A DNA stretch of 64,000 nucleotides from a virus. The position numbers and the translations under genes were made by a program. This document shows positions 1,676 through 61,311 of the stretch, one piece after another. The first letter of the stretch is position 1, and every line of letters starts with the position of its first letter. The stretch spans positions 51,208 to 115,207 of the IMG/VR virus record IMGVR_UViG_3300008107_000014. One strand, 5' to 3'. The notes under the pieces are model-generated. The model ran no database searches and was not told the origin of the DNA. It saw nothing but the letters and a program-made list of their open reading frames with translations.

Positions 1676-2813
1676 TAAAACAGGAAAGTTTCATCACATC
1701 AAATATAACTGTGTTGCTACACTAGATAACTGGTCTCCAAACGACCCTGGAATATTCTATCATCATTTTTATGATGATCAACAACACGGTGTTAGATTTG
1801 CCAATTGTCTCGACGAAGTTCATTGGGAATATTTAAGAAATAATCCGTCTGCAAAACTGTTGCACGAAAATTGTGGCGAAACATTTAATATGCTATTTGT
1901 TGATGAGATATCAGAACTAATAGCTAATCACAACATTAATCCTTCTCAAATTTTTATTATTGTAGCCGATGAGTTACATAAATCTTTTTTAGTAACAAAT
2001 TTGATTAGCCGAGACATTAACGGAGTTAATATTGAAATTTATAATTTTCTAATGAGTAAGGTATCAATGGATTCTTTTGATGTGCCTATTATTAAAAAAT
2101 TTAGCGTATTGAGTCGTAACTATCGATCTTCTCGACTGCAACTGTATTGCAAATTGTTAGAGGCAGATTTATTAGACCAATTTTTATATTCGTTCTACAA
2201 TATTCATCCATATGAAAAAACTATATTCTCTGTAAAAGATATGATATTAGATTTGCAGAATGCAACGGTGCCGGTAACTGATAAAATTATAGAGTGGTTA
2301 TACGGTGTGCCTTATTCTATTAGCACCACTGATAATGTTTACGATAAGTGGGCCGATGTTACATATCAAACAGTAGCATCAGCTGATTTTCATATCATTA
2401 TTGAAACATTCTTTGATCCGTTTTTAAGCCACATTAACGGAAAATATAAAAAAGGATATGCTCCTAATTTTATAACAGAAAAATTATATAAACCTATTGC
2501 TTGTAAAAAACCATTTATTGTATTTGGTCCACAGTATATGCTTGAGGATCTACAATCGATGGGCTATAAAACATTCGATAGATTTATAAACGAATCGTAT
2601 GATATAGAAGAATCTCCCGAAAAACGTCTTGATATGATAGTTGACGAAATTAAGAAAATACTAGCTTTGCCAAAAGACGAATATCAAAATATTGTAAATA
2701 GTATGCAGGATATTTGCAATTATAATTATAATGTGTTAGCCGCTCAGAAAAATTACACTATTACAAATCCAGCATTTACTTTTATAAAAGATAATACAGG
2801 ATGGAAATACTAA
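1665..2813 (+). CDS. GT10-like 'ITEK' putative glycosyltransferase
   Basis: FHIIIETF...FITEKLYKPI..KKPFIVFG..GYKTF..INESYD. Likely start is ATG 1665. Confidence 0.55.
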   Translation: MLYSKTGKFHHIKYNCVATLDNWSPNDPGIFYHHFYDDQQHGVRFANCLDEVHWEYLRNNPSAKLLHENCGETFNMLFVDEISELIANHNINPSQIFIIVADELHKSFLVTNLISRDINGVNIEIYNFLMSKVSMDSFDVPIIKKFSVLSRNYRSSRLQLYCKLLEADLLDQFLYSFYNIHPYEKTIFSVKDMILDLQNATVPVTDKIIEWLYGVPYSISTTDNVYDKWADVTYQTVASADFHIIIETFFDPFLSHINGKYKKGYAPNFITEKLYKPIACKKPFIVFGPQYMLEDLQSMGYKTFDRFINESYDIEESPEKRLDMIVDEIKKILALPKDEYQNIVNSMQDICNYNYNVLAAQKNYTITNPAFTFIKDNTGWKY

Positions 2814-3493
2814 ACTTTTTTAAAAATTTATCTAATACTGATAACTTAGCTGCTCAGTATACATCTGCAACTCCGCTGCCTCACGTAATTGTAGATAACT
2901 TCTTGCCGGATGAAATTTTTAAAAATTTATGTACAGACATTCGACAGTATCCTCCTAATAAATGGATTGTTAAACAGTTAAGCGATACTAGCGGAATTCG
3001 AAAAGAAGCAAGAGATTTTAACGATTCATATACTCTGCAAAACATTATGCTTAATCTTACTGGCCATAATTTTGTATCTTGGATGAATAAAATAACCGGC
3101 GCTACTAATATAATTCCCGATCTCCATCATCTTGGCGCAGGATTAACAGCAGCACCTTCTGGTGCAACACTAGGGCTTCATGTTGATTTTAATTGGAACG
3201 ATACTTTAAAATTAAACAGAAAATTTAATTTAATTTTCTACGCAAATGATTCGTGGGAAGATTCGTGGAATGGTGAATTAGAGTTTTGGAATAAAGAAGG
3301 AACAAGTTGCCTTTATACAATTAAGCCAACTCCTAATAGATTGGTATTTTGGGAGTATGAGCAAGAATTAATACACGGATTTACAAAACCGTTAGCTTGT
3401 CCAGCCGGCGTTGAACGATTAAATTTAATGACAATTTACTATACAAGTAATGCATCGCCGACATCGGATCCTCATAAGTCTCGATTTTATTAA
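2801..3493 (+). CDS. 2OG-Fe(II) oxygenase (prolyl-hydroxylase-like)
   Basis: HVD (HxD), RKFNLIFY, GELEFW, distal HG and R (ERLNL). Confidence 0.85.
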   Translation: MEILNFFKNLSNTDNLAAQYTSATPLPHVIVDNFLPDEIFKNLCTDIRQYPPNKWIVKQLSDTSGIRKEARDFNDSYTLQNIMLNLTGHNFVSWMNKITGATNIIPDLHHLGAGLTAAPSGATLGLHVDFNWNDTLKLNRKFNLIFYANDSWEDSWNGELEFWNKEGTSCLYTIKPTPNRLVFWEYEQELIHGFTKPLACPAGVERLNLMTIYYTSNASPTSDPHKSRFY

Positions 3494-9161: not shown

Positions 9162-9613
9162 GAAACTTCTGCTTTACCTGGGGCAATTTTCTTAACGTCA
9201 ACATATCCTGCCCCACGGCGATCCATGCTAACACCTTCCTCTTGTCCAATGTCTCCGCACAATGCACGGAACCATCGATCTGCAATTTCTTCATCTGGAT
9301 CACCATCATAGCCATATCCTTGCAACTTCAATTGTACAATAAACTCATCGTTCCAATCAAGCTCAAAGAATCCATTACGTAGATTGTCTTTGTTAACATG
9401 TGTGTCAAGTACAGCTACCCACGGCTCGCCCTTTTGTGTAGCACGTTCTTTAGGAGTTAACTTAGCTTCTGCTGCTTTTGCTTCAGCTGCAATTGCTTCT
9501 TCTAAATGCTGTTTAGCAATACTCTTTGCAGTCTCTGCTTCTGCTAGTGCGTTTTGTGTTGCATCTTCTAATGCTTGTAAGCCTGTAATCTTTTTAAAGA
9601 ATTGTTTAATCAT
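9158..9613 (-). CDS. hypothetical phage protein
   Basis: Likely start 9613 (TAATG overlap). GFFELDWN core. Confidence 0.65.
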   Translation of the reverse strand: MIKQFFKKITGLQALEDATQNALAEAETAKSIAKQHLEEAIAAEAKAAEAKLTPKERATQKGEPWVAVLDTHVNKDNLRNGFFELDWNDEFIVQLKLQGYGYDGDPDEEIADRWFRALCGDIGQEEGVSMDRRGAGYVDVKKIAPGKAEVS

Positions 9614-10467
9614 TAAGTTCCCCACTCATTTTTAAATAACGGTACTTGTAGTCTGTCGCTATAACGTAAACCGTTTTTCATTGCTAGTAATGCTACATTC
9701 TTATTGTTTAATGCGTAGACACTTTCAACACCACCTACCGGCATTAGATAAACATGTCCTTTAAAGCCTGCTTTGCGATATGCGGCAATAGCACATTCGG
9801 CATCGGTAAAATCTTGTTCTGTGGCAATAACAAATTTCAAATATGCTGTACCGAAATTTTCGTATTCACAAACTACTTCTGGAAGAATTGCTTCTTCCCA
9901 TTTCTCTCCACTACATGGTAGTTTAGCACTTACGCTAAATGTAACTTCTCTAGCAAAATCCATGTTAGGCATTTGCCATTCTACCAGATATTCTTTAAAC
10001 TCTTCTGTTAGCTTTTGAGTGCCATTTGTTTCAAATGTAATCTCTTTCAAGCCTGACATCTTAGGGTGACTCAACAAGTCTGGATAAGCACGTTGCCAAC
10101 CCAGCAATGGTTCACCGCCTGTGATAACAAGATGCTCGTCCTTCCAATGATCTTGCGGAAGTATTTCCATAATTCGATCTACGATAGCATCACTTGTAAG
10201 CATTGGACTAAGATCCTTAAAACTAGGATGCCAGCTAGCATAGCTATCACACCCCGTAGAAACCAAAGGTAGTTCTTCATATTTGTTATATAGATATGCA
10301 ACTTCTGCAATATCTTCAGCTTCGTTGCTTAATTCACCACGACTCATGCCAAAACCTGCACATTTAAAGTTACAACCAAATGTGCGTAAAAACACAGAAG
10401 GCACACCCATGTAGCGACCTTCACCTTGAATGCTGTAAAACAGCTCTGCGATTTTAATTTTACTCAT
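9613..10467 (-). CDS. queE: 7-carboxy-7-deazaguanine synthase (radical SAM QueE)
   Basis: ELFYSIQGEG, FLRTFGCNFKC...GCDS, ITGGEPLL, ETNGT, YLMP, RLQV. Confidence 0.92.
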   Translation of the reverse strand: MSKIKIAELFYSIQGEGRYMGVPSVFLRTFGCNFKCAGFGMSRGELSNEAEDIAEVAYLYNKYEELPLVSTGCDSYASWHPSFKDLSPMLTSDAIVDRIMEILPQDHWKDEHLVITGGEPLLGWQRAYPDLLSHPKMSGLKEITFETNGTQKLTEEFKEYLVEWQMPNMDFAREVTFSVSAKLPCSGEKWEEAILPEVVCEYENFGTAYLKFVIATEQDFTDAECAIAAYRKAGFKGHVYLMPVGGVESVYALNNKNVALLAMKNGLRYSDRLQVPLFKNEWGT

Positions 10468-11092: not shown

Positions 11093-11277
11093 TCGGGTAG
11101 GCTTGTAAAGCGTTGTTCAAAACTTTCTATATAGCAACTATATTCTCTAGGCTCAAGAACTTTGTCATCTCGATAATGAACCCATGTATGTCCATCAACT
11201 TCAACTACATGGATTACAATAAATTTTTTATCAGTGCCTGAACCCCAACGACTTCCTGGTAAAATTTCTTTCTTCAT
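11089..11277 (-). CDS. hypothetical protein (small beta domain)
   Basis: ATGA overlaps on both sides. Confidence 0.6.
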   Translation of the reverse strand: MKKEILPGSRWGSGTDKKFIVIHVVEVDGHTWVHYRDDKVLEPREYSCYIESFEQRFTSLPE

Positions 11278-11807
11278 TTTGTCCACCACTCCTCATAAGG
11301 AAATTCAATCCAAACATCTTCTTCGGCTTTGTTTACTTCCATGCCCCAATAATTCATTGGAGCTTTACATTTACTAGATAGATTATCTACAATAACTGCA
11401 AATCGAACATTGTTATTCCAAATTTCTTCCCATCGTTCGTCATTTGGAAAACAACCACTCGGCCAGTCTTCCATAATCCAGTTTAGTGTACTACCTTGAT
11501 CATTGATATCGTCTACAATAAGGATATTTTTTCTACCATCACCTGATGACATTGGGTCGTGATTGATATACCCAAACGCATCTTCTGCCATACCTAGATT
11601 ACTAACGCATTCGCCTCCGTCACGCAGACTAACGTCTAATGATTGCATGGGTACATTTAAGTAATGACTAATCATAACAGCAGGTAGTAGCCCGCCTCTA
11701 GTTAATCCCACAACATAATCAGGTTTCCAGTTGCTTAATGCAATATCTCTACAAATCTTATTGACTAGACCTTTAAAGTCGTCATTGTTAATTACTAACT
11801 TTTTCAT
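11274..11807 (-). CDS. purine (xanthine/guanine-type) phosphoribosyltransferase
   Basis: VVGLTRGGLLPAVMISHYL, ILIVDDINDQGSTL (PRPP loop), WIEFPYE are Gpt-like. Confidence 0.85.
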   Translation of the reverse strand: MKKLVINNDDFKGLVNKICRDIALSNWKPDYVVGLTRGGLLPAVMISHYLNVPMQSLDVSLRDGGECVSNLGMAEDAFGYINHDPMSSGDGRKNILIVDDINDQGSTLNWIMEDWPSGCFPNDERWEEIWNNNVRFAVIVDNLSSKCKAPMNYWGMEVNKAEEDVWIEFPYEEWWTK

Positions 11808-12252
11808 ATCTTTCCTTAAGGTACTGCTCGTGTTGCACCCACTTATTATTAACTAAAAATCCCCATTCTCTTTTTTGAGGACCCGGCATAAACAAAGTCC
11901 AAGCAGTTATTCCAGGAACCAATTCGATACGATGATAGCTGTGAGAACTGCATAAGCGGAAGTGACCAGGACCACGCCAATGCTTTGTTTCTCCAACCAT
12001 TTTGCCATATTCGAAATTAGGAGTGTATTCATAGTAACCACCTTTGAGTATTAGTGTAGCATACGGCCACGGATGATCATGAACATCATCTGGGTCGCCC
12101 TTTAAAAACTTATGTAGGAATATATTAAATGGAAATGTTTTCCTATCTTTTAGAAACAAGTAATAGCGTTCAAGATACGGCTCGTCGCATTGACGATCCA
12201 TAACAATACGCTTACGACCTAGCCGATCTAAAAGATTAAGAAACCATTTCAT
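11788..12252 (-). CDS. cupin-fold (metal-dependent dioxygenase-like) protein
   Basis: HDHPW..TLILKGGYYE ... HRIEL ... WTLF cupin motifs. Confidence 0.7.
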   Translation of the reverse strand: MKWFLNLLDRLGRKRIVMDRQCDEPYLERYYLFLKDRKTFPFNIFLHKFLKGDPDDVHDHPWPYATLILKGGYYEYTPNFEYGKMVGETKHWRGPGHFRLCSSHSYHRIELVPGITAWTLFMPGPQKREWGFLVNNKWVQHEQYLKERYEKVSN

Positions 12253-12467
12253 TCTACATCCTCACTAAACCACTCGTCTACCATATCCTCGGCTTCGTCT
12301 TGTGTTAATGCAGGAACAAATAACCTTGCTGGTTGTCCTACAGTATGTTGAATATTAAAACGAACAATGCCAGTTGGAATTTGATCAAAGTCTCTTTCTA
12401 CAATAAATTCTTGAAGATTCTTTGCACGATAGATTAAATGATCTGTTAGGTCTTTAGCTGTTGTCAT
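12249..12467 (-). CDS. hypothetical protein
   Basis: 72 aa, ATGA overlaps. Confidence 0.6.
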   Translation of the reverse strand: MTTAKDLTDHLIYRAKNLQEFIVERDFDQIPTGIVRFNIQHTVGQPARLFVPALTQDEAEDMVDEWFSEDVE

Positions 12468-13162
12468 CTTGGGGCAAACTCCTGTTGTAGTTTAATGTTG
12501 TCAAAGAATTCCTTCTTTGTATGAGGATCATTTTTAAATGTTCCTTTTAATACTGTAGTCTGTGTTAGACTGCTATGTGCCATGATGCCGCGATTTTCAC
12601 AGCAACCGTGTGTTGCTTGAATGTAAACTGCTACGTTCTCTGAGTCAGTAGCTCGGCTAATCTCGCGGGCGATGTCGTTACAAAGTTCCTCCTGGAGAGT
12701 ACCCCGTCTTGCACACCACTGTGCGATTCTTGTGTACTTGCTAAGTCCGATAAGTTTTTCGGCAGCAATAATACCAATATAAGCAACGCCAGCCACAGGT
12801 TGGTGATGATGACTGCACATACTACGCAGCTCACTACGAACAACCAACATGCCTTCATAACGGTCTTGCGAGTCATTTGGAAACGCTGTTGCATCTGGGG
12901 CTGCTTCATATCTACCTGCCATTATTTCGTTAAAGTACATTTTAGCAAGTCTACGTGCTGTGCCCTTGCTGTTGGGATCGTTTTCACGATCAATAAGGAG
13001 TGCGTCGAGAACGCCTTCGAATGCTACTGTTGCTTCTTCAATAAGATAGTTTTTATCAAACTCATCTTTAACGTATTCGCTGATATTGTCACCAGCCCAA
13101 AAACGTTTGTTATCTCTTTTCATGTTTTCGCGGATAACTTGCGATAGATTTTTTTCTGACAT
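12464..13162 (-). CDS. folE: GTP cyclohydrolase I
   Basis: TARRLAKMY, SMCSHH, GLSKYTRI, LQEEL, HGCCENRG. Confidence 0.95.
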   Translation of the reverse strand: MSEKNLSQVIRENMKRDNKRFWAGDNISEYVKDEFDKNYLIEEATVAFEGVLDALLIDRENDPNSKGTARRLAKMYFNEIMAGRYEAAPDATAFPNDSQDRYEGMLVVRSELRSMCSHHHQPVAGVAYIGIIAAEKLIGLSKYTRIAQWCARRGTLQEELCNDIAREISRATDSENVAVYIQATHGCCENRGIMAHSSLTQTTVLKGTFKNDPHTKKEFFDNIKLQQEFAPR

Positions 13163-13198: not shown

Positions 13199-14293
13199 TT
13201 ATTTTAAGTTGTCTAGTAGTCGACTACAACTGAAAAAGTTCTCTCTTAAAACATCTACCTGTTTATTTAGGCTAGGTAGACGAGATTTATAATTTTCCAT
13301 GTGTGTGACAATTTCTCTACACACGTCCGGACGATACTTGTTATATGAGTTCCAGCTTTCTGTCCACTCACTAGGATACTTAAACACATCCATGGCCATT
13401 TCGCTGTAGCTTAATCTATCCGGAACCATTGGGATTGCATCTACGATTGCACCTTCATACCAGCTAATACCTAAGGTCTCTTGTAAGTTTGCGCTGAACA
13501 CTAACTTAGCTTCGCCTAATAAATTGTGATATTCACGTTTAGTTAATTGCTGTTCTTGACAGATGACAAATTCGTATTGCGGTAAATGTTCTTTTAGGTC
13601 ACGGAAAATTTCAACTTGTTTTTCTGGGGCAATGCGATGTGGAAATAAAATAAGATCACGTTTTTCCATGCCTTTATACATAGACAACGTATCTTCCATG
13701 TATTCCATAGGCCATCCTGTGCGTACTACTTTATTATTGAACACAGTATCTTCTATCACAGTCTTATACATTGTTTGTCTACGATCTGGATCTGCTTGGA
13801 TCAAGTTTTTGTAAAACATATGAATGTGAAAGTCAGTGGCAAAGTAGTTGTGATCAAACGCATAATAGAAACTCTTCTCAGCATGTCTAACCCAAGGTTT
13901 ATCTCCTACAAGCCGTCCTAGGAAGTCTTGAGGATCATAACTGCCCGCATGCCATAGACCGTGAGTAGTTACTGGAATACTCAATAACTCACTCATGTAC
14001 TTTAAGTTTATAATACCTGGATGCCAAGCATCAGTAAAAATAAAGTGATCGCCGGGATGAACGGCTCCGCTACAAAATAAACGGCCCATCTGCTCAACTT
14101 GACTAGCCTTGTATATATTAGTGCCGCCAAAGTTAAGAAACGCTCCCGGAGTGGTAGCACTAGGAATGTCCGTAGGACCTGATATAACGTTGACATTGTG
14201 TCCCGCCTTTCGTAAGAGTGCAGGCAAGTGGGTTTTCCACTCGCCTGTGTACCTTGTTTCAACTGCTTCTAAATCAACAAGGTATATCGACAT
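13199..14293 (-). CDS. GT-B glycosyltransferase, GTDC1/QTMAN-like C-terminal domain
   Basis: ILFPHRIAPEKQ, KREYHNLLGEAKLVFSANLQETLGISWYEG (E-x7-E), PMVPDRLSYSEM. Start MSIYLVD at 14293 (TAATG overlap). Confidence 0.8.
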   Translation of the reverse strand: MSIYLVDLEAVETRYTGEWKTHLPALLRKAGHNVNVISGPTDIPSATTPGAFLNFGGTNIYKASQVEQMGRLFCSGAVHPGDHFIFTDAWHPGIINLKYMSELLSIPVTTHGLWHAGSYDPQDFLGRLVGDKPWVRHAEKSFYYAFDHNYFATDFHIHMFYKNLIQADPDRRQTMYKTVIEDTVFNNKVVRTGWPMEYMEDTLSMYKGMEKRDLILFPHRIAPEKQVEIFRDLKEHLPQYEFVICQEQQLTKREYHNLLGEAKLVFSANLQETLGISWYEGAIVDAIPMVPDRLSYSEMAMDVFKYPSEWTESWNSYNKYRPDVCREIVTHMENYKSRLPSLNKQVDVLRENFFSCSRLLDNLK

Positions 14294-14523
14294 TATGAAC
14301 GTGTCCGATAGTGTTGCTGTCCTCGAGGTTTCCACTCCTTTCGTTCGCCATTACGATCATTACGATCGAAGTGTCGACGAGGGCGTTTAGATGCCTCGTA
14401 AGATTGCCAAACTTTACTCTGGCGGTTATACAAATCTGCCGGATTATAAGGCAGAAGTTCTAATCTGCAAAAATCCAACAGGGCGTCGAGATCGTTAAAA
14501 ATCTTCTCAACTTCAGTTTTCAT
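14293..14523 (-). CDS. hypothetical protein with Arg-rich C-terminus
   Basis: 76 aa, AAGGA SD. Confidence 0.65.
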   Translation of the reverse strand: MKTEVEKIFNDLDALLDFCRLELLPYNPADLYNRQSKVWQSYEASKRPRRHFDRNDRNGERKEWKPRGQQHYRTRS

Positions 14524-14538: not shown

Positions 14539-14928
14539 TTAGTATTTGATGAATGAACCATTTTCTCCGTCTTCGGAGACCTCAATCCAAATCTCTCGAC
14601 CTGGATACTTATTGGAAATGCTGTCATATAAATCACCTGACATCATTTCACAACTCTTGTAATCTAGTTGTAGTGTACCTTCTTTGTAAAGGTTTTCCAA
14701 CCAGCGTTTAAATTGAATAAATTCAATATCGCGATCATCGTGTGTAACACTAATCCATACTTTGAAATGGAATGTGTGACGATGCGGATAACCTAGAAAA
14801 CTTACATCATATTCGTCGCCTGTAGCAAGATTAGGATCTGTAAGTGCTGCTGGATATTTGTGAATACCTTCTTTTTGCAAGGTAACCCAAATCATTTTGT
14901 TAGGACGAGTGTCTTGTCTAATAATCAT
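14539..14928 (-). CDS. dpdL: T-fold QueD paralogue, DpdL-type (predicted CDG decarboxylase)
   Basis: FLGYPHRHTFHF (L-x3-HRH-x-F) instead of the QueD C-x3-HGH motif, plus SCEMM and IEVSEDGENG T-fold motifs. A canonical QueD exists at 60745. Confidence 0.7.
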   Translation of the reverse strand: MIIRQDTRPNKMIWVTLQKEGIHKYPAALTDPNLATGDEYDVSFLGYPHRHTFHFKVWISVTHDDRDIEFIQFKRWLENLYKEGTLQLDYKSCEMMSGDLYDSISNKYPGREIWIEVSEDGENGSFIKY

Positions 14929-15152
14929 GATGCCAACAAACCCTTGCAAAGTTCTCCAATTTCTTCTTTAGTCATAAAGAAGTTATATGTACTTGCATGT
15001 TCTACGTTTCCGTCTTTATCAAGACATTCTTGAATAAAGTCGAGATTGTATAATCCTTTGGGACTAATTACTTCCCAAGTTTCTACACGCACTCTAAATG
15101 CACCATTATCTTTAATGGTAAAATTGTTAATTTTTAAACTTTCATGTAACAT
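14925..15152 (-). CDS. hypothetical protein
   Basis: 75 aa, translationally coupled on both sides. Confidence 0.6.
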   Translation of the reverse strand: MLHESLKINNFTIKDNGAFRVRVETWEVISPKGLYNLDFIQECLDKDGNVEHASTYNFFMTKEEIGELCKGLLAS

Positions 15153-15454
15153 TATCGTAATCCTTCCACTGTAATAATTTTGCTTAGTTCTTCGCCTAAG
15201 TCTTTATCATCCATTATAACATAAATTGCATTCTTATGTCTATCGTTTACGTTATCGTATTTGTTCAATTCAATAATAGTTCCACCAGTTGCCTTGTGTA
15301 CTTTAAAATTAAATCCGTGATTGTCTATAGTACGTTCACTGCTCATAGAGATGCCTTTGCTAAGTCTAGGTCGATTTACATGGATATCTTCTTCACGAAT
15401 TTTATCCCAGTCTTCGCGAACCCAGCGGACAATGATTTTTTTAAACCAGTTCAT
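15152..15454 (-). CDS. hypothetical protein
   Basis: About 100-aa ORF in the operon. Confidence 0.6.
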   Translation of the reverse strand: MNWFKKIIVRWVREDWDKIREEDIHVNRPRLSKGISMSSERTIDNHGFNFKVHKATGGTIIELNKYDNVNDRHKNAIYVIMDDKDLGEELSKIITVEGLR

Positions 15455-15989
15455 TTTCTTCAATACTCCATAGTTTTCCTTCAGATGATTCTTCTACATC
15501 AAACAGGCTGTTAAATTCATTGATCTGCATAGTTCGAATATCTAATCCCCACTTATGAAAAACTTTGTCTGCTAAAAACGAGTGTGAATATTGTTCAGAC
15601 GGTATTCCAAAAGGACAGTTTCCACTATTTGCGGCAGAATATGGTTGTTCTAATTCACATTTAGTAATCAATAAATTTGATGATGTTATTATGTTGTTAA
15701 TTGTGGTTAGTAATTCTTCTTCGGGAATTTTAAACATTTCGGTCTGTGATGAAATGTTATTGAGGTATTTGCCAGATTTATATATCAGGGCTTGTTTAAT
15801 CTTTGATTCCAATCTGCCTATATCTCTAGGTGCTCCGAAATAAACATGATTAAGACTAAACTCCTTAGAACAAAACTTTTGTCTAGCTCTAACAGCAGAA
15901 TACGGCGTCATAGCTACTCCAATCTTTTTCCAATTAGAGTCTCCGTTTAAATCGTCGTGTATGTAAAAGAAAAAACTTTTTTCGTTCAT
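15441..15989 (-). CDS. GIY-YIG / T5orf172-like nuclease
   Basis: FFYI...WKKIG..(P)..R, LESKIK, TEMF pattern typical of T5orf172/MUG113-type GIY-YIG. Confidence 0.6.
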   Translation of the reverse strand: MNEKSFFFYIHDDLNGDSNWKKIGVAMTPYSAVRARQKFCSKEFSLNHVYFGAPRDIGRLESKIKQALIYKSGKYLNNISSQTEMFKIPEEELLTTINNIITSSNLLITKCELEQPYSAANSGNCPFGIPSEQYSHSFLADKVFHKWGLDIRTMQINEFNSLFDVEESSEGKLWSIEENELV

Positions 15990-20236: not shown

Positions 20237-22903
20237 TTACTCAAAATCAAACAATTTTCCGAATGTGTTGTCACTGCGAGTTGAGCTGATGTCCCATTCC
20301 AAGACACCGATCAAGTTTTCTAGCTTTTCGTCGATAACTGCATTTTCCATATCAGCATCGTTAAAAGGCATGTCCTTAAACCACTGAGGTAATCTAAGTT
20401 CATCTACAGGATACGCTACACTAGTATACCCCATTGGATTGTCTTTAATTTTACAAACAATTACTTTTGCACCGTCTGTAATATTCATTGAATACTTGTC
20501 ATCCATCATACGCTTTAAAGTATTCCAATTCAAACTAGCACGGACATGTCCGGGCATATTTGTTTTTCCTGCTTTCTTTTCTTTGTTAGCGTATTCTGTA
20601 ATGTTGTTAGCACGTTTAGGACTACCTTTCTCCCAACCAGGTCTTGTTTTAAACTCAGTTCGAAAATTAGTAATGTATTCAAGCACATCTTCTTGGGTAC
20701 CATTATTTAGGACCATAGTTAGTACTTCACTTAAAAAGTCTTGAATAACAACAGGCGTATCACTACGCTTAAGGTCTAAGCCCATGGCCTTAATCTTACC
20801 AGGCTTGCCGTCTACGTCTGCTCGTTTGCCTTCCTTGTCATAGTAAAGTACTGCATATCGTTTCTTCGTGATGAACAGTCCGCGACTTGCAACAATTTCA
20901 CGACCAGCTTTAATAACTTCGCCACGTGACTTTGGACAATGAAATGCGTCTTGCATAAATTTAGGAAACGTATCGTTGACTTCTTCACCAATTTGATCAT
21001 AGAGTTGAACAACACTTTCTTTGGTCCACGGCAATCGTCCAGCATCGATTTCTTTTCTTAATGTTGGATATGCTGTAAAGTAACATGAGTCAGTGTCACC
21101 GTAGATAATTGCTTTACCAATATGATTATTTTCACCAGTAACAATTTCGTTGACTTTTCCTGCCATATGTTGTGCAATTGCACGACCTGTTAGTGTAGTT
21201 GATTGTCCGATTCGGTTATCAAAAAATCTACAACCAGGGTTAAGAATAGCACCATACAAACTGTTAAGCAAAATCTTTTTAACTAGCTGACGTTTATCCC
21301 AGTATTCTTCTTCAATCTTATTGCCTGCTTTAATACAGTCTTTAAGTTTAGCCTGCATCTCTTTACGTTCGGCATACCAACGCTTTAGTAATCCAGGAAT
21401 AATGCCTTCAATTTCGTAGGTAAAGATTGTGCCGTTGGCACTTAGCATCCAAGGTTGATTGCTGTCAAAGATTAAATCATATACCTGTGCCGCAGACAAC
21501 GTATCGCTGCCTCCGTTTGCCCAATCAATGGTTAACTCACGTCCTACCTCTTTGGCCATGACACTTGTGTATTCTACTGCACCAAACATTCCTTCCCATG
21601 CAGCCGCAAAACTTTTACCTTTTGCAATCTCTGCATCGATATATGCCTTGGTTCCGTCTTGACGTAACTGTCCAATAATAGTTTCTGGACCCATGTTCAA
21701 TGCACGAATTGCTGAGGGATACAGTGAGTTAATGTCAAGTGACCCAATCCATTCGTGAATGCCCTTCTTTGGATATGCAACATACGCACCTGCCGCAGGT
21801 TCACTACCTGGCTCACGTTGTATACGGTTAGGAACAATCATTCCTCGGCGATGTGCCTCGTTAATAATAGCCTGTTCGGTTACAGCTACAGCACCCATTG
21901 TCGTTGCCAACAGCACTGTGTTTTCATGAGCAATGGTATTTGCAAGGTCTAAGAATTTTAATTTTTTATCTAGCTTGTCTAACAGCAATGTATCTTGCCT
22001 GTTGTATTCAATAAACTTACGGAAGTCTTCGTTATACAACTGATCTAGTGTACCTTCGTAGACTGTCTTTGTATCGCCAATTTCCATTTCTGCAATAGCA
22101 TCAAGTCGATAAGTGTGACGTTCTTCATAGGTATACTTACGGTACAGTTCTAAGCTATCTAAGTGTACACGCCCAATAAAGTCATAGGTAACAGCAGCTT
22201 TACCATATTTTTCATATTCTCGTTTCTTTGGAAATTGATTCCATAGACAAAATCTGCGTGTGTCGTCTTTGCTTAGTACTTTAATGACACGATTAACAGT
22301 GTAGGGAATATCAAAGCCTTCACTGTTCCAGCCACTTAATACATCCGCATCGTCAATTAAGTTTAAAAATGTATCGAGCATTTCTGCTTCGTTGTCAAAC
22401 AAAAATGTATTAGGAAAGTCTTTAACTGATTCTTTGGCCTGCACCATTGAAATAGTCTTTGGCGGTATTGCCAAGGTGATTAAACTATCAAGCCATTGTA
22501 AGTATACTGTGATAGCTGTAATTGGCATGAATGCATCGTCTGGTGCCGCATAGCCGCGTTCTGGATCAAAGTCTACTTCGATGTCAAAGAAACAAACGTT
22601 TAGTTTTGGAGCATCAACATTTAAATAGTTTTCTTCAAAACAACGGAATACAGGTTTAATGTCTGATTCGTATAGTTTCTTACCGCTATAAGCTCTTAGT
22701 TCTTTGTGGAGGTCTTTAAGGTTTCTGCAATTAACTCGTGTTAACGGTTCGCCGAAAATTGATTTGTGTTTTCCTCTTGAATCTTGATAATAAAAGAGGT
22801 GTTTTGCGGGGTATTCTTTATAGTGACGTTGCCCTTTTTCGTCACGCTCAACAACGTTGATAATATCATTATCGCGGTCGTAGAAAGCATCTACGTAGCT
22901 CAT
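20237..22903 (-). CDS. gp43: family B DNA polymerase
   Basis: Exonuclease FDIE, WNSEGFDIPY, YNRQD; polymerase DINSLYPS, KKILLNSLYG, YGDTDS, KKRYA. Confidence 0.97.
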   Translation of the reverse strand: MSYVDAFYDRDNDIINVVERDEKGQRHYKEYPAKHLFYYQDSRGKHKSIFGEPLTRVNCRNLKDLHKELRAYSGKKLYESDIKPVFRCFEENYLNVDAPKLNVCFFDIEVDFDPERGYAAPDDAFMPITAITVYLQWLDSLITLAIPPKTISMVQAKESVKDFPNTFLFDNEAEMLDTFLNLIDDADVLSGWNSEGFDIPYTVNRVIKVLSKDDTRRFCLWNQFPKKREYEKYGKAAVTYDFIGRVHLDSLELYRKYTYEERHTYRLDAIAEMEIGDTKTVYEGTLDQLYNEDFRKFIEYNRQDTLLLDKLDKKLKFLDLANTIAHENTVLLATTMGAVAVTEQAIINEAHRRGMIVPNRIQREPGSEPAAGAYVAYPKKGIHEWIGSLDINSLYPSAIRALNMGPETIIGQLRQDGTKAYIDAEIAKGKSFAAAWEGMFGAVEYTSVMAKEVGRELTIDWANGGSDTLSAAQVYDLIFDSNQPWMLSANGTIFTYEIEGIIPGLLKRWYAERKEMQAKLKDCIKAGNKIEEEYWDKRQLVKKILLNSLYGAILNPGCRFFDNRIGQSTTLTGRAIAQHMAGKVNEIVTGENNHIGKAIIYGDTDSCYFTAYPTLRKEIDAGRLPWTKESVVQLYDQIGEEVNDTFPKFMQDAFHCPKSRGEVIKAGREIVASRGLFITKKRYAVLYYDKEGKRADVDGKPGKIKAMGLDLKRSDTPVVIQDFLSEVLTMVLNNGTQEDVLEYITNFRTEFKTRPGWEKGSPKRANNITEYANKEKKAGKTNMPGHVRASLNWNTLKRMMDDKYSMNITDGAKVIVCKIKDNPMGYTSVAYPVDELRLPQWFKDMPFNDADMENAVIDEKLENLIGVLEWDISSTRSDNTFGKLFDFE

Positions 22904-50713: not shown

Positions 50714-53700
50714 TATGTTCTTCCTATTGATACTTCAACAACTCCGATATGATCTGAATCGTATGAGCTAATTGCTTTTCCAATCACAGTTCCTACCTTG
50801 ACATCTGCACCTGCAACAACTGCAACACCTGGAATGCTTGATGTTACTAACATGTCGCCTTTCTTAACTTTGCCTACTACCTTAACTGGTACACGACCCT
50901 GTAAGGCAATACAAACTTTAATACCCGGACATTCGAAGTTCATTGAGTATGCTGCTGTATTAGAAACAACACCTGCTACTCTTGTGTCGCCGGCTGTCTT
51001 GGTTGTAGTAACTTCTTTGTCACCACCAAACACCAGCACAGTACCTACTTCGTATTCCTGATCACCTTCGTAATATTCTGCCAAGTCAGCATAGGTTGCT
51101 TCAAACTTAGAAGTGCCTTCTAATGTCCATGCACCATAAATTTTACCAGCCGCACCCTGGTCTAAGTTTTCAGCAGATGCTAGGTTCGGTGTACAAACAT
51201 ATGTTGTTGTTCCGCCGGAAGTGTCAGAGAATACATGTTTGTTGTTAAAATGTCGAGTAATGTCTACTGCTGTACCCGAGTCCGACGTCTGTACTACAAT
51301 CCTTCCCTTTTGAAGAGAACCTGCACCATACATTACTGTGGATTTACCACCAGTAATTGCCAAAATGTCCATGACTGTGTAATCTGCACCGCTGCCTAGA
51401 TTACCAGCACCTCTGCTCATCTTCAACACACCGTCGAGTACAAGTTCGTTTACTCCAACGTTGCCGTTGTTGTCTCGACTTACTATGCTCTTAACAAGGT
51501 CTGCTGTTACTCCGGTTGTATAGGTAGTTGATGTTACTGGTAATACAGTAAGGTCTGCATTGGCAGTTGATCCGCCTACTTTTTGGTATAATACACCAAC
51601 GGAGCTGTACAATGATTTTAATACCGCGCCACCATTAGATACAATGTCGGATAACGATACTTCTTCAACATTATTAGTTGTATTACCACCTACATAACCT
51701 AAAACCTTGTTCTGACTAACCTTGACTAATTTATTAAGTGCTAGACCGTTGTCTTTGACTGCTATATGGCCATTAGTTGAATCAAACTGTCCAATGTTAA
51801 ATGTAGACAACCCACGTTGTGGGGTTATCACGCCACCTGTTACTGCAGGAGTAATAACACCTGGATTTGTAGTTGGAGTATAGGCAAACGATGTACTAGT
51901 AGGTGCAGGGCTGGCATTTACAGCAAATACCCCGTTAAGAGCCGCATTTGCAAAACCGCTGATAACAACTCTCTGACCGGCTGTAACTGGTGCTGTGGCT
52001 GCGCCTGTAACTGAATTACTTTGATTAGTATATGTTAGCGTAGCAATGCCACCAGTTGCAGTAGCACTAACACCTGTTATAGATGCACTAGTAGTTGTGA
52101 TAGAATTAGCAATGGTAAGTTTACTTTGCTCAATTGCCGCTGCTGCGTTTACTTCAGCGTTAGCAATTGCTCCCGAAGCAATCTGAAAGTTAATTGTTCT
52201 AGCACCGGAATCAAGTGTTACACTTAGATCTCCAGTTACCGCAGCATTGGTAAATCCTTCTGTTGCAACAATAGTTTCGTTGAGATCAGCAGTATTAGTT
52301 CCAGTATAAACAAACAAATTACCAGCTGATGGAGCAGAGCCTGCATACCCGCCTAGGTGCGGCACTGACAACCAGCGTTTAGTCGCTGCATCGTCGTTGG
52401 CCGAAGGATTTAACATGTTAATGATTCTACCAGCATTATTCATGTTAAGATTAGCAGTCATCCAGTTCTTGCCAGAAGTATCAATAAATCCAGGACCAAT
52501 TCTATCAGTGTTTAGTCTATCACTGGCGTCATGGCCTAATCTTCTATCGATATATAATTTGGTTGCTAGTTCAGTGGCAACAGCTCTTGAACTTGGACTT
52601 GAAAAATTAGGATCTGCTGAGAACTCACCAATTGGCACACCCTGTGATAATTGCAGAGAAGCAATATTAGATAAAGAAATTCTAGCACTTAATGTTGCTT
52701 CACCAGTGGATTGATTAACACCAAACAACTTACCAACTTTGAAGTTACCTTCTTGGTCAATGGTTGTATAGAAAACACGACCTTTCCCAACCTCGGCAGC
52801 TTCATTGGCTGGTTGATTAGGGTTAACTGGTGATCCAAAGATATTGTTTGGATAGTTTGTATCTGCATAGCTACCAGAACCAATATCTAATAAGTCGAAT
52901 GCAGTGGCCCTAAGTGTAGATATTGCAACAGTAATAGAAGCCTGCTCGCCAACTTTCGGACCAACAAACAATGTAAGCTCACTTTGTAACCCGTCAATTG
53001 CCCTTACCAAAGCCTTGTTGATAGTTATATATGCTGCAACTCCGCTAACTCCTGCGGTGTATGCAGTAACAACATATTCAACACCGTACCATAAAAACGC
53101 ATATCGTCCGCTGTTCAACTTAGCAATATCAAATAAGTCTGTAAGCTCATTGATTGATATACGAGTTGCACCAACAGCACCATAGTACGCAGTTCCTACT
53201 AGTCGTTGTACCGATTTGGCCGTTATCTCTATATATCGATACCCTTCGCGTAGACTTGCTAACGCTTCTTTGTTACCACCGGTTGTTCTATTAACAAGTT
53301 CGTCAGTTGCATAGGTAATAACATCGTTGACATCAAGATCCGGATCGTCTGCATTAAACAACAGTGCAGTTGATGATTTAGCAGCAGAAAAATCTGATAC
53401 ACCATTTAGCCATAGTCTCTTAGATTGTCTAATTGTAATAGGTGTGCCTGTCGGAAGTGCAGCGTATAATCCTGTTTCGCCAGGTTGAGTAGAAAGTGGT
53501 TCTAAGAATAATCTAGCGGTGTTGTTTGGAATACCACCAAAACTCGAACCGTCACCGTAGTTTAGACTGTTAAGTGAATATGTACGTTTAACACCGGTTA
53601 ACACTGCCATGACTGCTAGTGTACCAGCACTGCCGTAAACACCTGGATTTGATACCACAGGGTACGAAATAGAAGTTGGCGTAACAGCAGTAATGTTATA

Positions 53701-60744: not shown

Positions 60745-61311
60745 TTATGCCTCATAACTTGCGGAGTTAGCTTGGTGTTCAAATACTTCCACTGAACGAA
60801 GTTTAACACCCTTGCCTACAGGATAACGGCACTCAAACATTTTACCATTTTCTAAAGTGTAAGATTCTCCGCGTTGGAATGTTTCTAGAATATCTTTCAT
60901 TTTCATAAAAGCAGTTTCACTAAACTTTTCGCAACCAACCGCTTCTACAATACGTAGATCACATATTGCTCCACGTTCATGAGGGGCACCTTCAGGTCCT
61001 GTTCCAGTGCCGCTAGTAGGAGGATCTCCTAAATTGGCCATCTGTTTAAAGAAATTCAAATGTGGGTCATCTTCAGCAATTACCAAAGTATGATCGAACA
61101 TGTATTCGCTCCACTCTTTAAATGCTTTGAGTCCGCCAAAGTCCATGACCCAGTTACGATCGTCTAATGTTTCAGATTCAAATATTAATTTAATTCCGAT
61201 TGAATAGCCGTGTAGTGTTGAACAATGGCTGTGGCGACTACGCCATTGTCTAAAACAACAAGATAAACCCCTGTCGTTGCCGTACGTTTTTGTTGAAAGA
61301 TATTTTGCCAT
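60745..61311 (-). CDS. queD: 6-carboxy-5,6,7,8-tetrahydropterin synthase
   Basis: HCSTLHGYS (C-x3-HG), NWVMDFGGLK, FDHT, GCEKF, VEVFE. Confidence 0.88.
   Translation of the reverse strand: MAKYLSTKTYGNDRGLSCCFRQWRSRHSHCSTLHGYSIGIKLIFESETLDDRNWVMDFGGLKAFKEWSEYMFDHTLVIAEDDPHLNFFKQMANLGDPPTSGTGTGPEGAPHERGAICDLRIVEAVGCEKFSETAFMKMKDILETFQRGESYTLENGKMFECRYPVGKGVKLRSVEVFEHQANSASYEA

Follow-up and report, generated by a model that had tools for sequence, protein, structure and literature searches.

What does a glycosyltransferase do in a phage gene cluster for 7-deazaguanine bases? This question is raised by a stretch of 64,000 nucleotides (the window; positions 51,208 to 115,207) of IMGVR_UViG_3300008107_000014, a 115-kb IMG/VR virus record whose estimated completeness of ~33 % implies a large phage. 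On the minus strand, positions 13199-14293 of the window form an uninterrupted gene for a 364-residue glycosyltransferase of the GT-B type (hereafter GT), and the plus strand of the same interval is riddled with stop codons. Our study revealed that the product has the fold and catalytic motifs of a GT-B enzyme, that it is specifically related to the proteins matching PF12038 (named QTMAN_N in Pfam; the GTDC1/QTMAN family), and that its gene recurs beside the same partners in many phages. From this linkage, a role for GT in the DpdL-type deazaguanine pathway is likely. On balance, we favour GT as an accessory tailoring enzyme of a DpdL-type pathway without QueC, acting on phage DNA to attach a sugar to a derivative of 7-deazaguanine.

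The start codon of GT, an ATG at 14293, overlaps the stop codon of an upstream 76-codon open reading frame (ORF; the overlap reads TAATG), and the homologues share this start residue with the window protein. Used as a single query, the protein found no match in Pfam, PHROGs, NCBIfam or the PDB sequences (phmmer), and a megablast search of GenBank phages also returned none. The family was examined through an alignment of 48 diverse homologues (alignment A1), in which E139, E280, P291 and Y306 are invariant, R220, K225, E272, G275 and Y296 are conserved in at least 90 % of members, and H219 is conserved in 77 %. E-x7-E is the classic motif of GT4 enzymes, and it is present here as E272-x7-E280, with E272 conserved in 96 %. 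The AlphaFold2 (AF2) model built on this alignment (predicted local distance difference test score, pLDDT, 94; predicted template modelling score, pTM, 0.91) shows two Rossmann domains in the GT-B arrangement. PF00534 (Glycos_transf_1) weakly matches 34 of the 48 homologues, with a best value of 1.3e-8, and does not match the window protein by itself. Among solved structures, the model matched retaining GT4/GT5 enzymes over residues 1-364 (Z 20-25 with VIA-align; Foldseek E down to 2.5e-10), and the full-length matches included sucrose-phosphate synthase (Z 25), BshA, MshA, glycogen synthase, LmbT and PimA/B, with UDP-glucose:tetrahydrobiopterin glucosyltransferase (5zer) at rank 24 (Z 20.1). 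Many metabolic GT4 enzymes scored above both the GT of phage HY126 (9iqz, Z 18.6) and the DNA complex of T4 alpha-glucosyltransferase (AGT; 1y6f, Z 18.2). Judged by the predicted fold, the motifs and the kinship with QTMAN_N, the gene very likely encodes a working nucleotide-sugar-dependent GT-B transferase of the retaining GT4 type.

This kinship was quantified against 32 bacterial proteins from Bacteroidota genomes that match PF12038 at E 1e-39 to 1e-66, using as controls the 30 top-scoring PF00534 proteins found in a set of five of these genomes. A hidden Markov model (HMM) of the 48 phage homologues scored 31 of the 32 QTMAN_N proteins at 48-72 bits and the 32nd, a truncated frame, at 26 bits, and all 30 GT4 controls at 18.6 bits or less. 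Profile-profile comparison with hhalign joined the phage GT and QTMAN_N at 99.4 % (E 1.9e-21 and 2.9e-21) across both domains, covering 255-270 columns from the first beta-strand through the C-terminal motif. Against single sequences, the median hhalign score was 102 for QTMAN_N vs 26.8 for the GT4 controls. When five whole genomes holding 113 PF00534 matches were searched with no pre-selection, the six QTMAN_N genes, and no others, took the top six places (E 1.3e-16 to 4.2e-10), with the seventh match at 1.8e-4. The two families have 67 positions that are conserved at 60 % or more in both, with an identical consensus residue at 33; the shared residues include E9, P10, W19, K62, D82, H115, D123, D147 and H156 in the N-domain and H219, R220, K225, Y255, L259, G275, E280, P288, P291, R293, L294, Y296, E298 and Y306 in the C-domain. 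H219/R220/K225 align with H200/R201/K206 of the bacterial QTMAN_N proteins, and K225 with the lysine of the QTMAN HRWxxDK motif. Human QTMAN is inactive when K296 is changed to alanine (bioRxiv 10.64898/2026.06.28.735034), and human K296 is equated with this lysine by motif, not by alignment. A preliminary description of this DNA, whose two quoted glycosyltransferase peptides are both present in the minus-strand translation of 13199-14293, had pointed to shared motif spacings with human GTDC1, and the residues that it listed are indeed among the 33 identical consensus positions.

Other results weigh against a relationship as close as that description implied. The PF12038 model, which performs well on Bacteroidota (102 of 401 genomes matched), matched none of the 48 phage family members at E <= 0.1, and in the reverse direction a QTMAN HMM scored phage proteins at 20-50 bits, overlapping the GT4 controls (up to 39). 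When BFVD was searched with the AF2 model of a QTMAN_N protein from a bacterium, the phage GT family came no higher than ranks 6 and 9 among the viral structures, and the beta1-alpha1 loop reads RYT in the phage family vs an invariant GSH in QTMAN_N. Structure searches with the phage model returned generic GT4/GT5 enzymes only. The QTMAN_N profile found no QTMAN structure in the PDB and weak GT4 matches only, as did the phage family profile against PDB sequences; as the PDB holds no QTMAN structure, fold searches there cannot decide the link. The ESM Atlas yielded in-family viral clusters and PF00534 clusters, and no QTMAN_N. A quick maximum-likelihood tree separated phage, QTMAN_N and GT4 proteins into three groups, each with 100 % support in the Shimodaira-Hasegawa-like approximate likelihood ratio test (SH-aLRT), and placed the phage family outside bacterial QTMAN_N, the two being reciprocally monophyletic; with its long branches and no independent root, this tree alone is insufficient as proof of a sister relationship. 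Because PF12038 matches no phage member, the phage GT family is, on the comparison of sequences, a sister of the QTMAN/GTDC1 family and not a member of it. The resemblance first noticed therefore stands, with bacterial PF12038 proteins far above the GT4 background, and the membership does not.

The second line of evidence is the genomic context. A tblastn search found GT in 22 GenBank phage records, the cultured carriers including PA5oct, ACP17, Phosso, BUDD and BUCT-ZZ01. In Phosso, the PA5oct-like phages, ACP17 and BUDD, GT adjoins DpdL or lies within ~1.4 kb of it, near FolE, QueE, QueD and a DpdA-type gene. In BCSR5 GT and DpdL are ~2.8 kb apart, and in the cyanophage BUCT-ZZ01 a family member (E 1e-38 with the family profile) lies directly downstream of DpdL. 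The survey took in five GenBank loci and 130 IMG/VR loci that had been retrieved using the window protein and four remote family members as queries; the contexts of the most distant members come from the IMG/VR loci only. The surveyed GTs formed 41 clusters at 60 % identity, and DpdL was present in the locus for 35 of these, mostly at a distance of 1.5 kb or less. Loci with DpdL usually carry folE, queE and queD too, with dpdA-like genes alongside, and in several of the six clusters without DpdL the GT lies at a contig edge. PolA-type phages arrange these genes as QueD-QueE-FolE-DpdL, followed by a radical SAM enzyme of 447 residues and then GT, with overlapping stops and starts. The placement inside a deazaguanine operon, between dpdL and folE, was also part of the preliminary description: in the window the flanks are a DpdL-type T-fold gene and FolE, and location in such an operon was seen for 35 of the 41 lineages surveyed as well as for seven groups of cultured phages.

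The genes of the window are listed in Table 1. The LGYPHRHTF of the DpdL-type protein fits the published DpdL signature, LxxxHRHxF (PMC10516641), and the protein is 52-72 % identical to the gene neighbouring GT in Phosso, ACP17, PA5oct and BUDD; its translation probably begins at ATG 14895 or ATG 14928. The DpdA-like protein is 41 % identical to PA5oct EST35_0316, which adjoins the PA5oct GT, carries a DSGGYQ motif and is similar (E 4e-4) to the ACP17 gene that adjoins the GT of that phage. It has no Pfam match of its own, and another member of its family (L177:4038-5222) matches Pfam TGT at E 2.7e-5. From its sequence it reads as a divergent DpdA, an identity that is weak. The QueE-like protein is homologous to the annotated QueE of BUDD, PA5oct and ACP17. 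No QueC was found in the genome record, which is ~33 % complete, the annotated cluster genes include no queF, queA or queG, and the 64-kb window holds no tRNA genes.

Table 1. Genes of the deazaguanine cluster and its surroundings in the window
Feature	Position	Strand	Basis
QTMAN-like GT-B glycosyltransferase, 364 aa	13199..14293	-	Translation, AF2 model, profiles
Conserved 76-aa ORF, unassigned	14293..14523	-	Stop overlaps GT start
DpdL-type QueD paralogue (proposed 7-carboxy-7-deazaguanine decarboxylase), 136-aa ORF	14539..14949	-	LGYPHRHTF; phrog_17812
Divergent DpdA-like (TGT-fold) protein, 518 aa	16707..18263	-	Similarity to GT-adjacent genes of PA5oct and ACP17
FolE, GTP cyclohydrolase I	12464..13162	-	PF01227 E 2.2e-40; phrog_2197
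QueE-like radical SAM protein (7-carboxy-7-deazaguanine synthase)	9613..10467	-	TIGR03365/other QueE models E 1e-15 to 1e-10, below cut-offs; Radical_SAM
Canonical QueD/PTPS	60745..61311	-	PF01242 E 1e-12; 46 kb distant, same genome
Phosphoribosyltransferase in cluster	11274..11807	-	PF00156 E 2.7e-11
Cupin-like protein	11788..12252	-	phrog_4786 E 1.6e-37; no Pfam match
Family-B DNA polymerase (PolB)	20237-22903	-	Neighbour of cluster

These genes suggest an order of events. FolE, QueD and QueE would produce 7-carboxy-7-deazaguanine (CDG), which DpdL would convert, in the published proposal by decarboxylation to 7-deazaguanine, and the DpdA-like transglycosylase would exchange the resulting deazaguanine for guanine in phage DNA. 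As there is no queC in the record, the expected bases are CDG or 7-deazaguanine. GT would then glycosylate this deazaguanine-derived base once it is in DNA, giving a bulkier mark against restriction, in parallel to QTMAN, which adds mannose to queuosine, another 7-deazaguanine, in tRNA. We infer both the deazaguanine substrate and its location in DNA, and glycosylation after insertion is offered as the most economical model, by analogy with QTMAN and the T-even glucosyltransferases.

DpdL and DpdA3 were defined by Cui et al. in 2023, who proposed that DpdL decarboxylates CDG to 7-deazaguanine as the free base (PMC10516641). In the same study, plain 7-deazaguanine as its deoxynucleoside (dDG) fully replaced G in phiST DNA, dpdL and dpdA of ACP17 or phiST gave no dDG in Escherichia coli, for which the authors considered that other enzymes were possibly required, and none of the eight deazaguanine DNA bases reported bears a sugar (PMC10516641). 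The DNA of PA5oct withstands restriction enzymes with G in their sites and is attacked by nucleases that recognize modified G, though the study did not define the chemistry (PMC12191111). The distribution of GT agrees with the favoured reading: phiST, with its plain dDG, has DpdL and no match to the GT profile, and PA5oct, with its modified G, bears GT. Our literature searches, which covered papers available without subscription, turned up no glycosylated deazaguanine in DNA. GT may explain both the chemically undefined G modification of the PA5oct-like jumbo phages and the failed reconstitution of dDG from ACP17 dpdL and dpdA.

Several points weigh against this function. CDG and 7-deazaguanine have no hydroxyl acceptor like the cyclopentenediol of queuosine that QTMAN uses. 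The candidate helper enzymes vary by clade, being a cupin in the window and the radical SAM enzyme in PolA-type phages, so that no universal hydroxylating partner is evident. The acceptor could possibly be the carboxylate of CDG deoxynucleoside (dCDG), forming an acyl-glycoside or ester; N2 or another N- or C-glycosylation site; or a group introduced by a clade-specific enzyme such as the cupin or the radical SAM enzyme. The GT profile found no match in RHph_I1_18, Ahp1, Bakedbeans and D479, and since these four phages bear DpdL, GT is not essential to the DpdL pathway. T4 AGT (Z 18) is a weaker fold match to GT than are metabolic GT4 enzymes. Finally, Xanthomonas phage PhiXhv-12 encodes a remote relative of GT (25 % identity across 65 % of its length) alongside GlmS and a LmbE/BshB-like deacetylase (L215:4669-7903), with no deazaguanine gene among the annotated genes within 7 kb; possibly this locus, at the fringe of the GT family, is a system for amino-sugar modification.

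We therefore weighed the glycosylation of a deazaguanine already in DNA against other accounts. It is unlikely that GT acts before insertion, on a free deazapurine base or nucleotide (CDG, 7-deazaguanine or the product of a phosphoribosyltransferase) that would then enter DNA by a DpdA or polymerase route. Chemistry at the level of the base or nucleotide would agree with the conservation of the phosphoribosyltransferase in several clusters (window, PA5oct and BUCT-ZZ01), with the published action of DpdL on the free base, and with top fold matches to small-molecule GT4 enzymes (BshA, MshA, LmbT and sucrose-phosphate synthase). However, the closest sequence relatives, the QTMAN proteins, modify a base already in nucleic acid, a TGT-type pocket would need to admit a sugar-bearing base, and most GT lineages outside the clade of the window have no phosphoribosyltransferase. 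The same relatives invite an account that we regard as improbable, namely that GT is a QTMAN-like tRNA enzyme acting on queuosine-34 or its precursor in host or phage tRNAs and so tuning translation. The nearest characterized relatives do act on queuosine-34 of tRNA (bioRxiv 10.64898/2026.06.28.735034), and QTMAN_N proteins of about this length are frequent among bacteria (102 of 401 Bacteroidota genomes) and have no known DNA role. Yet the genes with which GT is tightly paired, those for DpdL and the DpdA-like proteins, mark modification of DNA rather than of tRNA, the absence of queC and the lack of annotated queF, queA and queG mean that the clusters do not make queuosine, the window offers no tRNA genes, and the RYT loop departs from the GSH of QTMAN_N.

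Two further accounts would remove the deazaguanine altogether. It is highly improbable that GT is a pterin glycosyltransferase like the cyanobacterial BGluT, acting on a FolE/PTPS-type pterin with no DNA role: FolE and two PTPS-fold proteins (QueD and DpdL) are present and 5zer is a full-length fold match, but 5zer ranks 24th among many GT4 enzymes, the phage profile favours QTMAN_N over other GT4 enzymes by more than 30 bits, and QueE and DpdA-like genes travel with GT. There is also little probability that GT serves an unrelated glycan, whether on the virion, on the host envelope or on a different DNA base (a hydroxymethyl-pyrimidine, for example), its link to these genes reflecting only a shared place in a conserved replication module. 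The cluster does lie among replication genes (PolB, clamp, RNase H and dCMP deaminase), the PhiXhv-12 relative lies with GlmS and a deacetylase and has no annotated deazaguanine gene within 7 kb, and the window carries an island with an NDP-sugar epimerase/dehydratase. Against this, GT and DpdL remain neighbours in phages of the PolB and the PolA type, in jumbo phages and in a cyanophage, although gene order otherwise differs among them, so that hitch-hiking with a module is hard to invoke. Tailoring of a deazaguanine in DNA is the account we favour.

The remaining genes of the cluster bear on this model to differing degrees. The phosphoribosyltransferase has a possible role in the salvage of a deazapurine base. 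It has a homologue in PA5oct (L002:10330-10764), its counterpart in the BUCT-ZZ01 cluster is annotated as a xanthine-guanine phosphoribosyltransferase (L162:1459-1932), and homologues occur in 68 loci in total. The recurrence of a purine-type phosphoribosyltransferase suggests that a deazapurine base is made into a nucleotide alongside the DpdA route. The cupin-like gene was found in 73 of the 80 loci of the GT clade to which the window belongs, and in no other clade, and homologues of the 76-residue ORF were found in 75 related loci, nearly all of this same clade. A gene for a protein of 182 residues between the DpdA-like gene and DpdL (15441-15989, minus strand) has a faint T5orf172 match (E 0.037), a GC content of 0.33 vs ~0.40, and a homologue in none of 135 related loci; it is probably a mobile homing-nuclease insertion. 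At 10-12 kb from GT, on the plus strand, lie the genes for the NDP-sugar epimerase/dehydratase (713-1675; PF01370 6e-45, GDP_Man_Dehyd 1e-23) and for a 2-oxoglutarate-Fe(II) oxygenase (2801-3493), which could possibly supply an unusual sugar donor or form a separate glycan island. Scans for promoters and terminators gave results at chance level only.

Side observations were also made in the surveyed loci. The second radical SAM enzyme, of ~447 residues (Radical_SAM 6e-11, not QueE), lies between DpdL and GT in L195:6661-8004, L188:6595-7989 and L172:5102-7324, and a radical SAM/SPASM protein (L177:673-1560) occupies the same slot; in the PolA-type phages this second enzyme may create the group that GT glycosylates. 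Some loci hold two or three GT paralogues, with three within 3.7 kb in L201:1026-4756, where a 234-codon ORF precedes the third, and two in L166 (2772-3956 and 8001-9095). Several paralogues in one locus hint at sequential glycosylation. In Vibrio phage Bakedbeans, DpdL is the C-terminal part of a 383-residue annotated protein with another N-terminal domain (gp176; L160:6212-7363). Two contigs binned into metagenome-assembled genomes of Crocinitomicaceae (L006) and Erysipelotrichaceae (L007) carry GTs that are 74 % and 67 % identical, respectively, to that of the window, and are most likely mis-binned phage contigs.

The GT family is very common in environmental phages and is also found in cultured ones. 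An exhaustive search at E <= 0.001 gave 1051 clusters at 50 % identity, a word-indexed search gave at least 8000 clusters at 90 % identity, and the clusters of the family in the Atlas are 95-100 % viral. On the bacterial side, QTMAN_N genes were found in 102 of 401 sampled Bacteroidota genomes, with one or two in each, full-length matches and open frames of ~365-400 codons. Among the loci surveyed (L088-L127) there were often two paralogues per genome, falling into groups at E ~1e-65 and ~1e-50. We know of no target assigned to the bacterial QTMAN_N enzymes, and with roughly one in four of the sampled Bacteroidota carrying their genes, it becomes worth asking what they glycosylate. The poorly understood QTMAN/GTDC1 family thereby gains a large set of viral relatives.

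To our knowledge, sugars on DNA bases occur only on modified pyrimidines. A sugar-bearing 7-deazaguanine in the DNA of these phages, a prospect we hold only tentatively and place a little short of probable, would be without precedent in any genome as a glycosylated base of the purine type, and its maker would be a family that shares ancestry with the queuosine mannosyltransferases of eukaryotes and bacteria. If this is true, deazaguanine glycosylation in nucleic acids would be an old activity serving tRNA as well as DNA, and the tandem GT paralogues and the coupled radical SAM enzyme of some clades would point to further and more elaborate derivatives. Phage DNA hypermodifications shape the outcomes of restriction, CRISPR and type IV defence, and are a source of enzymes for biotechnology.

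Compared with known systems, the phage GT is nearest in sequence to QTMAN/GTDC1, the tRNA-queuosine alpha-mannosyltransferase family (compared here through its bacterial homologues), with which it shares its size (~365-390 residues), the two-domain GT-B architecture, the motifs H-R-x4-K and G-x4-E, the tail P-x2-P-x-R-L-x-Y-x-E and a tie to 7-deazaguanine biology; of the QTMAN/GTDC1 C-terminal motif, P-x2-P-x-R/D-L-x-Y-P-E, the residues P288, P291, R293, L294, Y296 and E298 are present. It differs in having Glu as the first acid of E-x7-E, where QTMAN_N has Asp, and in its partners, which are DNA-modification genes (DpdA-like and DpdL) in clusters that do not make queuosine, unlike the tRNA queuosine pathway of QTMAN. 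The generic retaining GT4/GT5 enzymes (BshA, MshA, PimA/B, sucrose-phosphate synthase and glycogen synthase) are the best matches among solved structures, at Z 21-25 over ~300 aligned residues, and E-x7-E is common to them, but sequence identity is 9-15 % and the phage profile sets their GT4 controls (<=18.6 bits) well apart from QTMAN_N (48-72). The cluster itself resembles the phage Dpd systems (DpdA1-4, DpdL, DpdM and DpdN; Hutinet 2019, Cui 2023) in its FolE, QueD, QueE, DpdL and divergent TGT-fold DpdA, and resembles phiST in that queC is absent, as it is from the window record. The described Dpd pathways have no glycosyltransferase, whereas ACP17 and PA5oct have GT; phiST, for which dDG was demonstrated, does not. 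Finally, the phage DNA glucosyltransferases (T4 AGT and the beta-glucosyltransferase BGT, and the systems acting on 5-hydroxymethylcytosine, 5-hydroxymethyluracil and 5-hydroxycytosine) have in common with GT the GT-B fold and the predicted post-replicative transfer of a sugar to a modified base as protection from restriction. No sequence relationship to GT was detected, and where the T4-type enzymes modify hydroxylated pyrimidines, the acceptor proposed here is a purine analogue.

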